From positions 1 to 15,295 of IMG/VR virus record IMGVR_UViG_2778261085_000006: DNA of 15,295 nt. One strand, written 5' to 3'. Source of the DNA: a virus (taxonomy: Duplodnaviria; Heunggongvirae; Uroviricota; Caudoviricetes). A program made the position numbers and the translations under genes. The notes under the pieces are model-generated. The model was not told the origin of the DNA and did not search any database. It worked only from the letters and a program-made list of their open reading frames with translations. Of this stretch, positions 4,187 to 12,776 are shown in pieces (within the stretch, counting starts at the first letter, position 1; each line of letters starts with the position of its first letter).

Positions 4187-4342
4187 TTACTCCTCAGATT
4201 CGTAAGCTGTGAAGACAGTGACCTCCGTCTGGCCGGTTCGGATTCGTACCTCGCAGAGGTCTTTCCTCGTTACCAGTGCCGTCACTATGACGGTTAAACA
4301 GATGACGATCAGGGCGATTAACATCGCCTTTTGCTGCTTCAT
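4187..4342 (-). CDS. hokD: Hok/Gef-family type I toxin (HokD/RelF-like small membrane toxin)
   Basis: 51 aa MKQQKAMLIALIVICLTVIVTALVTRKDLCEVRIRTGQTEVTVFTAYESEE, near-identical to HokD/RelF as recalled; AAGGAG SD 9 nt upstream; perfect 9-bp hairpin 10 nt after the stop. Confidence 0.9.
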   Translation of the reverse strand: MKQQKAMLIALIVICLTVIVTALVTRKDLCEVRIRTGQTEVTVFTAYESEE

Positions 4343-4680
4343 AGCCAGCTTCTCCTTGCCTTTCGGCACGTAAGAGGCTAACCTACATGTGTAAAGCATG
4401 AAATTGGCCTCAGATTAATGTTAAGCGTCTTGCCGGACGCGTAATGTTAACTGGGGCTTTTCTCTGTCTGCCTTACAGTGGCATGCCCGAGGCAGACAGC
4501 CTCAAGCACCCGCAACAATCTTACCGACACCGATAAGAAAACGCTATTTTTTATTGCCAGAACCTTCTGCCCAGGCTAATGTATCCGCGTCAGAACGGCG
4601 CAATGCGCTCGCCTGAGATACGTTTACTTGTCATTGGTGGCAACAGATAACGGCAATTGTTATTTCTGTTTGTTTCCTTC

Positions 4681-8986: not shown

Positions 8987-9412
8987 TTAATGCACAGCCA
9001 GAGTGTTTCCTGCCGGGCCACCACGATTCATCTGATCGAACAGAACTATCGCTGATGCAACTAAATCATCGATATCTTTCACCAGCCGTTCCTGCGTCTC
9101 CACCAGCTCCCGAAAATAAGCGGAACTGTGGCTGCGCATTCGGGCCACCAGCGGAGGCGGCATCGCTTTTTCGATAGCTGGTAACAACGCCTGAATTTTT
9201 TTAACCGCGTCAGGGGTATCTTTCTCCAGCCAGCGGAAAATTTTCTGGGTATTACGGCCCAGGGCTTCCGGATGGCTGTCGTCGAACAGTTCAGGAAACG
9301 TCAGACCCAACTCGAAATAAGCCCGGGTTATTTCAGCTGCCGGAACTTTTTCACCGTCCGGATATGCCCAGGCATTCATCGCCATGCGGATGTGTTCATG
9401 CTTGATTTTCAT
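8987..9412 (-). CDS. YdaT-like (CII-position) protein
   Basis: 141 aa; GGAG SD 8 nt upstream; 17-nt overlap with the upstream Cro-like gene; same position and size as ydaT in Rac. Confidence 0.65.
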   Translation of the reverse strand: MKIKHEHIRMAMNAWAYPDGEKVPAAEITRAYFELGLTFPELFDDSHPEALGRNTQKIFRWLEKDTPDAVKKIQALLPAIEKAMPPPLVARMRSHSSAYFRELVETQERLVKDIDDLVASAIVLFDQMNRGGPAGNTLAVH

Positions 9413-9671
9413 GAATCAACTCCGGTGTATTTGATGTGTTAGCCTTATCTCCATCAGGCACCCCGTCAGTTGGATTCGGGTATAAATCTGGTCGCAATTC
9501 ATGAGGAGTCACCCCAGTTGCAATATAAATTTGACGAACCCGTTCTCCCGTCGGTACTCGACCATTGTATTCATTTGCCCATTTGTGTATTTGAGACGGC
9601 CAAGCCCCTATTGCACGCCCTAGCGGACGAATACCACCAGCAATCTTTATTGCTTTGTCCAATGCTGTCAT
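9396..9671 (-). CDS. Cro-like HTH regulator (YdaS/DicC position)
   Basis: 91 aa; GGAGG SD 4 nt before ATG; divergent from the repressor gene; N-terminus MTALDKAIKIAGGIRPLGRAIG resembles YdaS-type Cro-like proteins. Confidence 0.7.
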   Translation of the reverse strand: MTALDKAIKIAGGIRPLGRAIGAWPSQIHKWANEYNGRVPTGERVRQIYIATGVTPHELRPDLYPNPTDGVPDGDKANTSNTPELIHENQA

Positions 9672-9774: not shown

Positions 9775-10164
9775 ATGGACATGAGAAAAAAGCAATACGA
9801 CACCCCGCTAGCAGAAAGGTTAGATACGATCTCGCAACAGCATCATTTAAGTGGTTCAGATTTAGCGCGTATCGCTGGTGTAGGTCGTTCATCAGTCAAC
9901 GCATGGAAAAAAAGAGGAACAATCAGTAAAGATTCCGCAGCCAAAATTGCGGAAGCTACAAACGTTTCCCTTTCTTGGCTACTGACAGGAAAAGAAGAGA
10001 CAAATAGAGAGGCACTTGATGATGACGAGAAGGCCCTGCTTGATGTTTACAGAAGCCTGCCACCTGTAGAACGTAGAAATATGCTGGCAGCTTTTCAAAT
10101 GCGACTTCAAAAACTGACCGAATTTTACTCAGAATACGTCGACCCAATAACAAGACAAAAATAA
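9775..10164 (+). CDS. DicA-like XRE-family HTH repressor (short CI analogue without peptidase domain)
   Basis: 129 aa; N-terminal HTH (SGSDLARIAGVGRSSVNAWKKRG); C-terminal ALLDVYRSLPPVERRNMLAAF resembles the DicA C-terminal region; divergent to the Cro-like gene. Confidence 0.8.
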   Translation: MDMRKKQYDTPLAERLDTISQQHHLSGSDLARIAGVGRSSVNAWKKRGTISKDSAAKIAEATNVSLSWLLTGKEETNREALDDDEKALLDVYRSLPPVERRNMLAAFQMRLQKLTEFYSEYVDPITRQK

Positions 10165-10185: not shown

Positions 10186-10209
10186 ACCGCCGCAAGGCGG
10201 TTTTTTTTT
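10186..10209 (+). terminator. Rho-independent terminator after the repressor gene
   Basis: ACCGCC-gcaa-GGCGGT followed by a T9 run. Confidence 0.8.
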
Positions 10210-10230: not shown

Positions 10231-10259
10231 TTGACATTTGTTCACCTTGGAAGAACAAT
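10231..10259 (+). promoter_or_regulatory. Promoter of the leftward (dicB-operon-like) transcript with a third repressor operator
   Basis: -35 TTGACA (10231..10236), 17-nt spacer, -10 AACAAT (10254..10259); operator TTGTTC-N9-GAACAA at 10238..10258 matches the two sites in the divergent region. Confidence 0.55.
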
Positions 10260-10333: not shown

Positions 10334-10486
10334 ATGGATACTATCGATCTTGGCAACAGCGAATCTCTGGTATGTGGCGTGTTCCCCAACCAGGACGGTA
10401 CGTTCACCGCGATGACGTATACCAAAAGCAAAACGTTTAAAACCGAAACTGGCGCGCGTCGCTGGTTAGCCAGAAACACTGACTGA
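10334..10486 (+). CDS. YdfA-like small protein (50 aa)
   Basis: GAGGT SD 4 nt before ATG at 10334; MDTIDLGNSESLVCGVFPNQDGTFTAMTYTKSKTFK resembles Qin YdfA as recalled; first gene after the DicA-repressed promoter. Confidence 0.65.
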   Translation: MDTIDLGNSESLVCGVFPNQDGTFTAMTYTKSKTFKTETGARRWLARNTD

Positions 10487-10497
10487 TGAGGTTGACG

Positions 10498-11136
10498 ATG
10501 GAATTTAAAGATTTACCAATATCAATACAGGAAATGGCCGCTGATGTGATTCGCTCGCAACTGGCGCGGAACCCAATGATATTAGTAGATAAAGTGTTCA
10601 TCATAAATTTATCAAATCATGTCCGCAATTCTTTTACCGGACTGTATTCAGATTCGTTCACAAACAATCATTGTGTAGAAAATAAAGCAAAGCCCATTGC
10701 AGAAACGATAACGCAAAACATCAATACGAAACAAACCGAAGAAGAAATTGACCAGTTTACCCGAGATACTGGCTTAAAATGCAGGAAAGAAAAATCGCCA
10801 TATGCGGGGAATATGTTTGTTTATGACAACCTTATCCGAATTCGTGGCGAAATTCCGACTGAATACCTAGCAAGAATTCACCGGGCATTACTTAAAAATC
10901 TGGAAACGGAAGTATTTGATGGCAATACCAACGGCTCCTTCGTGGTGTCAACTCTCGCAAAAGAGTGGGATACAGATAATCGCTGGAATGTTGCCACATG
11001 GTTATTCAGCAACAAAGCTGCTGCCCTGGAAGCTGCGGCCTGTATTTGCGACCTGCTAAGGACAGACCGCAAATACAACCTGGATGTGTATAGCTATATT
11101 TATGCTGAACACTATCCGCTATGGATTAACTGGTAA
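10498..11136 (+). CDS. Hypothetical 212-aa soluble protein, AT-rich, unknown family (candidate accessory/defence moron)
   Basis: GAGGT SD 5 nt before ATG at 10498; 1-nt TGATG overlap between the ydfA-like stop and an upstream in-frame ATG; GC visibly lower than flanking genes (about 38% in the first 60 nt counted by hand); no TM segments or recognisable motifs. Confidence 0.7.
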   Translation: MEFKDLPISIQEMAADVIRSQLARNPMILVDKVFIINLSNHVRNSFTGLYSDSFTNNHCVENKAKPIAETITQNINTKQTEEEIDQFTRDTGLKCRKEKSPYAGNMFVYDNLIRIRGEIPTEYLARIHRALLKNLETEVFDGNTNGSFVVSTLAKEWDTDNRWNVATWLFSNKAAALEAAACICDLLRTDRKYNLDVYSYIYAEHYPLWINW

Positions 11137-11346
11137 TTACAAAGCTGCACCAGCAGGGCCACGGCGACCAGCGCCACGATTGTAATCAATGATGCCATTA
11201 TAAAGCGCATTATTTAATTTATCGTCGAATGCCGATTCTGTGAGCCCTAGCACTGAATGAGTTTTTAATAACCCTGATTGCCTGAGTTGATTAACCAGGC
11301 ATTCAATCTGTTTTTCAATAATCGGATGTATTGGCTTGTTTGGCAT
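11137..11346 (-). CDS. Hypothetical 70-aa protein, convergent with the 212-aa gene
   Basis: GGAGGA SD 5 nt before ATG at 11346; its stop codon directly abuts the stop of the 212-aa gene (TAATTA); Gly/Arg/Ala-rich C-terminal tail. Confidence 0.45.
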   Translation of the reverse strand: MPNKPIHPIIEKQIECLVNQLRQSGLLKTHSVLGLTESAFDDKLNNALYNGIIDYNRGAGRRGPAGAAL

Positions 11347-11669
11347 TTTATCCTCCATTGAAGTTACTGGTTGAGAATGGAGACCACACGTGACAGCGTG
11401 TTGTCGTGCGCCGGACACGGATAAGAATCCGGCACTGACAGTTTACTGAAAGAATATATCCCTGAAAAGTCAGGGCATAACTCGAAAGCGCACGGCGGAG
11501 GTGTCTTTTCCTTAGAAGGCTTGTCGTTAGATTTCTTCGACCGTGCGCTTCCGGTTGTGGCACTCCGCGAAATGGCGCGGCGGTAAGTATGGCGGGGTTA
11601 TCCTTACCCCATTAGTGGCACCGGGTTGTCAGGTTGACCATACGCTTAAGTGACATCCCCGCTGCAACA

Positions 11670-11735
11670 ACCCATGTTGATTACCTTTTGGCGGGTATCC
11701 GTTTTTTGTTTTCCCTTGTGATACCCGCCCTTTTT
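11670..11735 (+). ncRNA. DicF-like small RNA candidate (processed sRNA ending in an intrinsic terminator)
   Basis: 10-bp perfect stem GGCGGGTATC / GATACCCGCC with a U-rich 20-nt loop, followed by CTTTTT; 5' flank UUUUGGCGGGUAUC resembles DicF UUUGGCGGUAUC as recalled; sits in a non-coding stretch of the DicA-repressed operon. Confidence 0.4.
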
Positions 11736-12001
11736 AAAGTGAATTTTGTGATGCGGTGAATGCGGCTAAGCGCACGCGGAACAGTTAAAAAGGACAGTTG
11801 ACATTCGTATTGGTTCTTATGGGTGGGTTATCTGTATCCGGCGTTAATTGTTAACTGGTTAACGTCACCTGGAGGCACCAGGCATCGCATCAACAAAATT
11901 CACTTCAGTGATGAAAGGTGAGAGAAAATGTTGAATGTAGCTATTGAAAACCAGAACGGGTGGAATTATAGTGCACCTGCACCTCATAAAACGGGTGCCG
12001 G

Positions 12002-12212
12002 GATTTGCACCCCGATGATCACTAGAGCGCATAACCGCGCCAAAGCGGTTTTTTTATGCGTAAAGCGCAGCCACATTCAGATTATGGTGGGGCGTATGGG
12101 GCCGTTTTCGGGCGGGCCGGATTCTCTAGTGACCGGTAGTGCAAACCCTGTACGTCTCACCACCCATGAGATTTGCACCTACGGTGGTGAGTTTACCAAC
12201 TTATCACTAGAG
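12002..12212. repeat. Three copies of a bipartite motif TTTGCAC-N-TCACTAGAG (direct, inverted, direct) upstream of the Rha gene
   Basis: Copy 1 at 12004..12027, inverted copy CTCTAGTGA...GTGCAAA at 12124..12146, copy 3 at 12172..12212 with a longer internal spacer. Confidence 0.5.
12034..12055 (+). terminator. Possible intrinsic terminator/attenuator in the Rha leader
   Basis: ACCGC-gccaaa-GCGGT followed by T7; stem is only 5 bp. Confidence 0.4.
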
Positions 12213-12221
12213 GCTGCCATC

Positions 12222-12776
12222 ATGGCTACTATCCCTACCCTGTCTCACCCTGACGTAACCATCGAAAACGGTCGCGCTATCACTACGTCTGTTGCGATCG
12301 CAGAGTTCTTTGGCAAACGACACGACAACGTGTTACGTGCCATCGCAAACATTGAATGCTCAGAAAAATTTAACGCCCTCAATTTTGAGGACGTAACGTA
12401 CACCGACGCCAAAGGCGAAAAACGTCCAATGTACCAAATCACCAAAAACGGCTTCGTTTTCCTGGTGATGGGCTTCACTGGCAAAAAAGCCGCTGCATTC
12501 AAAGAGGCCTACATTGCTGAGTTCGACCGCATGGAGGCAGAGCTGCGTCAGAATAACACCCCACCAACTGACAAAATAATTCCTGGCGATGGTCGCACTC
12601 TGGTTGTTCGATTCGACGAACACGGCAATATCAAATTCACCGAAACCGTTCCTGATGGTGCAATGGTCTGTACTCTGGATACCTTCCAGTTTTATCTGGA
12701 GAAACAGGGATGGACACTTGTAAACCGGAGCGCAATTAGAAACATGACTGTCGAACAATTGCTGCGTATTAAATAG
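12222..12776 (+). CDS. Rha-family phage regulatory protein (antirepressor-like)
   Basis: N-terminal AIAEFFGKRHDNVLRAIANIECSEKFNALNFE...MYQITKNGFVFLVMGFTGKKAAAFKEAYIAEFDRME matches the Rha N-terminal domain; the in-frame extension back to 11928 contains a terminator and repeats, so was not taken as coding. Confidence 0.75.
   Translation: MATIPTLSHPDVTIENGRAITTSVAIAEFFGKRHDNVLRAIANIECSEKFNALNFEDVTYTDAKGEKRPMYQITKNGFVFLVMGFTGKKAAAFKEAYIAEFDRMEAELRQNNTPPTDKIIPGDGRTLVVRFDEHGNIKFTETVPDGAMVCTLDTFQFYLEKQGWTLVNRSAIRNMTVEQLLRIK

Follow-up and report, generated by a model that had tools for sequence, protein, structure and literature searches.

The dicF slot and its operon

The 15,295-nt stretch of viral DNA analyzed here (IMG/VR record IMGVR_UViG_2778261085_000006, Caudoviricetes; hereafter the window) carries on its plus strand, at positions 11690-11735, an intrinsic-terminator-type hairpin that occupies the slot of dicF, the small RNA (sRNA) gene of the Qin prophage of Escherichia coli K-12. 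DicF is the classic prophage sRNA linking prophage derepression to host cell division, metabolism and, in enterohaemorrhagic E. coli, virulence. Upstream of the hairpin lie a plus-strand gene for a CI/DicA-type prophage repressor (9775-10164; Pfam Phage_CI_repr at 47.9 bits, plus HTH_3), a strong terminator (10186-10201), a plus-strand sigma-70-like promoter site (10231-10259, TTGACA-17-AACAAT, from a consensus scan only), and a plus-strand homolog of ydfA, the first gene of dicB-type operons (10334-10480; tblastn with K-12 YdfA, 90% identity over 49 aa). The promoter-like site matches the position of K-12 dicBp upstream of ydfA and would serve as the early-left (dicBp/pL-like) promoter. In the counterpart region of phage Tritos an annotated "DicF antisense sRNA" lies between small ydf-type genes and dicB, and the K-12 counterpart is the ydfC-dicF-dicB interval of Qin; together these identify the region as a lambdoid-prophage early-left operon of the dicB type. 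The slot is thus recognizable by location, between ydfABC-type genes and dicB/kil, from its conserved flanks, the upstream ydfA homolog, and the CI-like repressor and promoter further upstream, with dicB itself being replaced here. The repressor-controlled operon proposed in the first-pass annotation, which was made from the sequence alone, is borne out by this arrangement.

The hairpin consists of a perfect 10-bp stem (5' arm GGCGGGTATC, RNA GGCGGGUAUC, 11690-11699; 3' arm GATACCCGCC, RNA GAUACCCGCC, 11720-11729) that closes a U-rich 20-nt loop, CGTTTTTTGTTTTCCCTTGT (11700-11719), and is directly followed by the tail CTTTTT (RNA CUUUUU, 11730-11735), exactly where the first-pass annotation had placed it. 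Folded as RNA, positions 11681-11737 reach -18.5 kcal/mol, relative to -7.0 +/- 1.8 kcal/mol for 200 dinucleotide shuffles (z = -6.48), none of which folds equally well; with this score (z = -6.5) and retention across hundreds of loci, a chance hairpin is ruled out. The reverse strand also folds at this position, but a U-tract follows the stem on the plus strand only, and the element is oriented accordingly. GGCGGG...CCCGCC followed by CUUUUU provides the sequence features of a Rho-independent terminator, the mechanism by which the 3' end of K-12 DicF is made (PMC5069750). Scans identified no other plus-strand terminator-like site between the promoter-like site at 10231 and position 11690, and no promoter-like consensus directly upstream of the hairpin, the latter fitting K-12, where no internal promoter was found (PMC10448788).

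A conserved RNA scaffold around a replaced cassette

The hairpin is embedded in a plus-strand structured non-coding leader (11350-11927), the counterpart of the Qin ydfC-dicB intergenic region, as judged by homology and by the lack of a conserved open reading frame (ORF). Compared with its counterparts around dicF in phage Tritos, E. coli SC407 and K-12, the leader shows 84-96% identity, and a 581-nt query (11350-11930) matches 4,721 of the 5,426 complete E. coli genomes together with 59 phage records. A plus-strand ORF of 41 aa (11634-11759) crosses the variable cassette and hairpin and is open in 10 of 108 distinct homologous sequences, while the alignment-covered part (11396-11563) of a 71-aa minus-strand ORF (11348-11563) is broken or frame-shifted in about one third. 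Hidden small ORFs in the leader were rejected on these grounds, and the earlier statement that no convincing ORF spans 11419-11927 holds, its right boundary probably being too tight given a start at 12222 for the downstream Rha-family gene (see below).

Within the presumptive precursor, a small stem-loop GGGGU-UAUCCUU-ACCCC (11594-11610, plus strand) varies across loci in a compensatory manner, with stems CGGGG/CCCCG, CGAGG/CCTCG, CTGGGG/CTCCAG, CAGGGG/CCCCTG and GGGGT/ACCCC; this covariation identifies the leader as a conserved structured RNA. The first-pass annotation had noticed the same hairpin and set it a few bases too far to the left, at 11585-11605. In minimum free energy (MFE) folds of both the window and K-12, the domain holding the dicF slot is closed by a long-range duplex between CCGUGCGCUUCCGG (11541-11554) and GCGGCUAAGCGCACGCGG (11762-11779) on the same strand. 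The duplex is invariant in sequence across loci, so that covariation provides no evidence for or against it. In K-12 the 190-nt and 53-nt DicF species depend on RNase III and RNase E, and the 5' end of the 190-nt species is RNase III-dependent (PMC10448788); by arithmetic from the annotated 53-nt RNA, we infer that this end falls inside the long-range duplex, which makes the latter a putative RNase III site. Downstream of the hairpin, a conserved plus-strand spacer (11736-11900) shows 97-99% column conservation over about 100 loci and holds a nearly invariant pentaloop hairpin, CCUGG-AGGCA-CCAGG (11868-11882). To judge from sequence, the DicF processing scaffold is thus intact around the slot.

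We aligned the slot with its counterparts in K-12 Qin, in phage Tritos and at about 300 further loci. Compared with Tritos, E. coli SC407 and E. coli Br_190, the window is nearly unchanged over approximately 110 nt upstream and 65 nt downstream; the cassette of about 70 nt that these flanks enclose is replaced. Divergence from canonical dicF begins right after CGCTGCAAC, and a different 5' arm, AACCCAUGUUGAUUACCUUUU (11669-11689, plus strand; type 2), stands where canonical dicF has its RNase E site and 5' seed, UUUCUGGUGACG. Besides the genomic slot, the near-identical flanks, the repressor-controlled early-left operon and the long-range duplex that fits RNase III processing, the window shares with DicF of Qin (RF00039) the stem base GGCGG/CCGCC, the CUUUUU tail and the lead-in UUUGGCGG(G)UAUC. 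The resemblance of the 5' flank to DicF noted in the first-pass annotation corresponds to UUUUGGCGGGUAUC, which matches GUUUGGCGG-UAUC of K-12 DicF, and its remark that loop and 3' stem differ is correct by alignment.

Alternative cassettes occupy the dicF slot

We used the flank anchors GACCATACGCTTAAGTGAC ... AAAGTGAATTTTGTGATG to collect slot sequences and obtained 135 loci with 41 distinct slot sequences, which fall into at least six cassette classes. Canonical DicF (class A) accounts for about 110 loci, including K-12 and Tritos. Class B combines the canonical 5' arm with a different hairpin (L012, L117, L128). The window's allele, class C, recurs in L002, L078, L084 and L123, and class D (L003, L044) joins the arm of class C to a hairpin of the form GGCGGCAUCAG...CUGAUGUCCGCC. 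Class E (L005, L025, L086) has a C/D-like arm, which the type 2 arm of the window resembles, and the canonical loop on a GGUGG/CCACC stem base, a compensatory change that maintains the base helix of the terminator. Class F (L021, L125) carries the canonical arm and a minimal hairpin with an 8-nt loop. Classes B, D, E and F share stem base, tail and flanks with the window, and, as read from these sequences, arm type and hairpin type combine mosaically.

A second scan with the C/D arm retrieved 68 class C loci from viral contigs, metagenomes and genomes. The 65-nt cassette of the window is present in 158 of 5,426 complete E. coli genomes (about 3%, in 170 places) and the canonical dicF allele in 4,011 (in 7,254 places), while class D appears in about 90 complete E. 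coli records at >=90% identity (about 2%). Class C also occurs, at 94% identity, in one deposited phage genome, PP818812.1 (L309, "Actinobacillus phage vB_Apl-pPE4"), where the cassette sits between a DicA-like repressor and a kil-type gene. The layout of that genome is of E. coli type, with a DicA-like repressor, YdaT, Kil and exonuclease VIII; it looks as if either the assignment to Actinobacillus pleuropneumoniae as host is doubtful or this phage and the lambdoid phages of Escherichia are closely related. Three metagenome-derived contigs (L131, JAGZPX010000007.1; L133, JAIIUG010000151.1; L132, JAGTSE010000010.1), whose source metagenome-assembled genomes are labeled among them as Veillonella parvula, Collinsella sp. 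and a soil "Proteobacteria bacterium", match the flanks of the E. coli dicF region exactly, carry a near-canonical DicF in the case of L131 and L132, and are most likely mis-binned Escherichia prophage contigs.

Surveys of dicF usually rely on high sequence identity or on the Rfam model to count copies and so miss the alternative cassettes (class C at ~3% and class D at ~2% of complete E. coli genomes). The gene has been treated as a single sequence, more than 99% conserved (PMC5069750), and we found no prior description of cassette classes in the literature covered, which leaves aside Faubladier & Bouche 1994 and Melson & Kendall 2019. A preprint on Pas sRNAs (10.64898/2026.05.13.724894) concerns late-region loci rather than the dicF slot and is not relevant here. 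Missing annotation was dropped as evidence, as canonical dicF is also unannotated in the same RefSeq records.

The class C hairpin is a positional allele of dicF that has lost its seeds

The Rfam DicF model (RF00039) found no match in the window at its gathering score (48 bits), none at E<=10 on 951 nt, and none for the window allele on 106 nt at E<=10 with the laxest filters; no other Rfam family matched over the cassette at three stringencies. The same model scores K-12 DicF, the positive control, at 76.7 bits, class E at 58.9, class B at 43.5 and class D at 39.4 and 38.8, and returns no match for class F. The first-pass annotation had proposed a divergent DicF-family RNA inhibiting cell division, and had named a failed model match as half of what would speak against it. 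The element is indeed divergent and a positional counterpart of dicF; its membership in the family at the level of the model does not hold.

The residues of DicF that pair with the ribosome-binding region of ftsZ and with pykA lie in its 3' part, the ftsZ segment having been mapped by the DicF9 and DicF23 mutants together with compensatory mutants, and those that pair with xylR lie at the 5' end, in the single-stranded arm UUUCUGGUGACG, altered in the DicF3 mutant (PMC5069750). The ftsZ-pairing segment UUUACUCCGUGACUGCUCUG has no match in the window even with up to 3 mismatches allowed; the xylR seed UUUCUGGUGACG is missing from the slot, with three 2-mismatch matches elsewhere in the window, at chance level. 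Predicted pairing follows the same trend: with the ftsZ translation-initiation region, K-12 DicF forms a duplex of -38.5 kcal/mol (-15.1 net of unfolding) and class E, which retains the ftsZ-pairing loop, one of -31.8 (-8.5 net), while the window allele reaches -26.6 (-2.6 net), a duplex worse than the shuffle mean. In a scan of the translation-initiation regions of 18 genes of the dcw cell-division cluster, ftsZ scored -11.1 for canonical DicF and -1.7 for the window allele, and no target stood out for class C or class D. The cell-division-inhibitor function suggested in the first-pass annotation thus finds no support in the sequence, both the ftsZ and xylR seeds being absent and predicted ftsZ pairing being no better than for shuffled queries.

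We also compared the cassette interior, between GGCGG and CCGCC, with that of DicF. Similarity is significant for class D (z 3.8), class B (2.8) and class E (10) and not for class C (z 0.9-1.4 relative to shuffles); descent of the class C interior from DicF, suggested by a GUUUU..UCCGUGA match seen by eye, was rejected on this basis. Class C therefore differs from DicF of Qin in that its 5' arm (the xylR seed and RNase E site region) and its internal 3' segment (the ftsZ/pykA seed) are replaced, in forming a stem of 10 perfect base pairs, capped by a simple 20-nt loop, where the DicF helix is interrupted, and in being without a covariance-model match, predicted ftsZ pairing or significant interior similarity. 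Class D has exactly the window's 5' arm and a comparable simple long hairpin, yet scores 39 bits with the DicF model and retains significant interior similarity; class E differs from the window by its ftsZ-pairing loop and class F by its minimal terminator, and classes C and F are the most diverged of the slot alleles. As far as sequence allows, homology to DicF rests on position, flanks, stem base, tail and lead-in, as well as on the arm common to the detectably DicF-like class D, and the window hairpin is best described as a positional allele of dicF rather than a demonstrable sequence-level member.

Conservation within class C and the role of the element

The 68 class C loci have essentially the same stem, while the loop occurs in 8 length and sequence forms of 17-20 nt that differ mostly in U-run length. 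Much of the invariance of the arm stems from the 17-mer within it by which the loci were gathered; 5' of and outside this search pattern, the 12 nt AACAACCCATGT (11666-11677) are invariant in 67 of 68 loci. A weaker CCUUUU tail is present in 30 of the 68. Cassette identity is 0.990 within class A (flanks 0.94-0.96), 0.981 within class D (flanks 0.85-0.96) and 0.944 within class C (flanks 0.85-0.97), and falls to 0.67 between classes, where flank identity is 0.86 and 0.92; flank divergence is thus alike within and between classes. A drifting loop on an invariant stem favors a mainly structural role as a terminator.

These observations lead us to favor a model, held at a probability of about 0.7, where the class C element attenuates transcription and forms 3' ends within the early-left operon, and where it releases a processed hairpin RNA that would be devoid of the known activities of DicF. 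On relief of the CI/DicA-like repressor, RNA polymerase starting at the early-left promoter would cross ydfA and the structured leader, and the GC-rich 10-bp stem with its U-tract at 11690-11735 would terminate part of the transcripts. The flanking scaffold would then trim the product, RNase III cutting the long-range duplex and the AU-rich stretch 5' of the stem serving RNase E, to yield a stable hairpin RNA of approximately 50-60 nt, as for K-12 DicF, that would accumulate without activity in trans. With both mapped seeds lost, repression of ftsZ, xylR or pykA is not expected. Internal terminators of lambdoid pL operons, such as lambda tL1, and 3'-end-derived or terminator-embedded phage sRNAs provide precedents in which an intrinsic terminator in an early operon attenuates transcription and leaves a stable hairpin RNA. 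Class C can be likened to tL1-type terminators as an intrinsic terminator inside an early operon, with the difference that no antitermination factor or nut site is known for operons of this type.

Several aspects of the locus weigh against so plain a function. A loop of 17-20 nt, with a recurring GUUUU...UUCCC motif, is kept in all class C variants; it is unusually large for a plain intrinsic terminator, and a loop as short as the 8 nt of class F is evidently tolerated in the slot. The U-rich stretch before the stem and the U-tail resemble an Hfq-binding sRNA 3' module, and the occurrence of discrete recombining cassettes in conserved flanks hints, at the level of sequence, that the cassette matters beyond termination. 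Termination and processing of class C are themselves extrapolated from K-12, and the pairing predictions are crude, as they combine duplexfold and cofold with no accessibility model and cover only ftsZ, the dcw cluster and the window.

Such features would find an explanation if class C encoded a trans-acting, Hfq-dependent sRNA of new specificity, terminated and processed like DicF, whose AACCCAUGUUGAUUACCUUUU arm and/or UUUUCCC loop targets host or phage mRNAs other than ftsZ, xylR and pykA. The preserved expression and processing scaffold, the large loop, the invariant arm and the U-rich tract before the terminator are all compatible with such an RNA; taken as its reverse complement, the arm looks like a translation-initiation region, AAGGUAAUCAAC-AUG-GG, and the discrete classes assort independently of flanks and immunity type, as expected of functionally different alleles. 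The loop, however, is the least conserved part of the cassette and varies mostly by U-run slippage, the opposite of what a seed would predict, and arm invariance is largely due to the 17-mer used for collection. Altered targeting, as suggested in the first-pass annotation, found no candidate mRNA in the places scanned: the dcw cluster offered no target, and within the window the best loop and arm duplexes were weaker than those of shuffled queries, only self-antisense matches standing out. We therefore consider a new-specificity sRNA possible but doubtful. Rather unlikely, in our estimate, is a broader version in which the dicF slot is a conserved expression and processing platform, made up of the promoter-distal leader, the RNase III duplex and the terminator base and tail, whose ~70-nt "seed cassette" is swapped among lambdoid prophages by recombination, giving at least six functionally distinct small RNAs; were it true, these prophage regulators would form an allelic series of which DicF is simply the best known.

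Two further readings fare worse. A functional DicF orthologue that still inhibits cell division through pairing with ftsZ mRNA would share slot, operon type, stem base and tail with the observed element, and dicB lies immediately downstream in 45 of 51 class C loci, so that the operon is still a division-inhibition operon; the failure of the DicF covariance model at any threshold, the absence of UUUACUCCGUGACUGCUCUG at 3 mismatches, a net ftsZ interaction worse than all shuffles (-2.6 compared to -15.1 kcal/mol for DicF) and the interior z of 0.9-1.4 make it very improbable. Hairpin alleles in a conserved early-operon leader are also what would be seen of nut sites, the flanks carry conserved, covarying stem-loops, and the cassette could in principle be a recognition RNA (nut/boxB-like or HK022 put-like) for antitermination, matched to a cognate phage protein or polymerase. 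Class C is found behind at least 5 unrelated repressors, the cassette class showing no association with repressor or immunity type, which led us to reject an immunity-linked nut-like site; no N-like gene was recognized in the operon, and the similar divergence of the flanks within and between classes likewise argues against a recognition site. A put-like RNA was rejected on sequence, though not on structure: neither the leader nor the entire window gave a blastn match to HK022 or its put regions. We give recognition by a phage factor next to no probability.

The class C and D cassettes are without the ftsZ, xylR and pykA seeds, and finding a dicB-type operon is therefore no proof of DicF-type regulation. 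The dicF slot offers a natural system for the gain, loss or exchange of seeds by recombination in terminator-embedded sRNAs, and, should the variants have targets of their own, the regulatory repertoire of very common prophages would expand.

Neighboring modules and further features of the leader

No dicB homolog was found in the window (tblastn with K-12 DicB), where an isrK/C4/Rha module takes its place directly after the dicF spacer. This arrangement is shared by only 3 class C loci, the window included; dicB follows within 400 nt downstream in the 45 of 51 loci noted above, and Br_190 (class D) has both, with dicB after the Rha module. On the plus strand, the adjacent, separate module (11944-12167) comprises a promoter-like site (11944-11972), isrK (11979-12055; 68.6 bits) and the C4 antisense RNA (12080-12167; 78.1 bits), both RNAs scoring above the Rfam gathering thresholds. 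The coding sequence of a Rha-family regulator, antirepressor-like, follows on the same strand (12222-12776; Pfam Phage_pRha at 113 bits, aa 119-203 of a longer ORF). That ORF, of 282 aa, starts at 11928 and runs to 12776 through both RNA genes, and isrK has its own promoter-like site and terminator. A GAGG-N8-ATG start is present at 12222, 3' of C4, and is likely the true start of the Rha gene; the 282-aa ORF, annotated as such in RefSeq relatives (e.g. CP182387), is probably over-extended. The Pfam Phage_ASH match in its N-terminal part (aa 14-108) exactly overlies isrK and C4, and the Ash protein family may have been built in part on translated RNA genes. Overall, the layout of 11928-12776 resembles a C4-controlled antirepressor module of the P1 immI type that separates the dicF slot from the remainder of the operon.

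At the other end of the operon, the minus-strand pair upstream encodes YdaT and a Cro-like YdaS, the latter gene (9396-9671; Pfam YdaS_toxin) being divergent from the repressor. Between ydfA and the leader, a 216-aa plus-strand ORF (10486-11136) stands at the position of Qin ydfB/ydfC and abuts a 70-aa minus-strand ORF (11137-11349), neither with a Pfam match. Transcription of the latter would oppose the early-left operon. In E. coli SC407 the corresponding position is annotated with a hypothetical gene on the minus strand (L002:5812-5997).

Within the leader, the palindrome CCCTGAAAAGTCAGGG (11460-11475; 6-bp stem, 4-nt loop) scores as terminator-like on the minus strand, just ahead of the minus-strand ORF, and the K-12 stem at this position is weaker (CTGA/TCAG). 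In the spacer, the STnc100 model (RF02076) aligns at 11742-11897 with 31.8 bits, under its gathering score of 47, and gives sub-threshold scores of 31-36 bits at the same place in every locus tested, K-12 included; the likeness is no more than partial and falls outside the hairpin. The region 11836-11890 also holds a palindromic GTTAACTGGTTAAC. Finally, a full-length sok antitoxin RNA (4340-4511, minus strand; RF01794, 115 bits) marks a hok/sok-type toxin-antitoxin module elsewhere in the prophage, and the same module is present in the Escherichia albertii locus L125.

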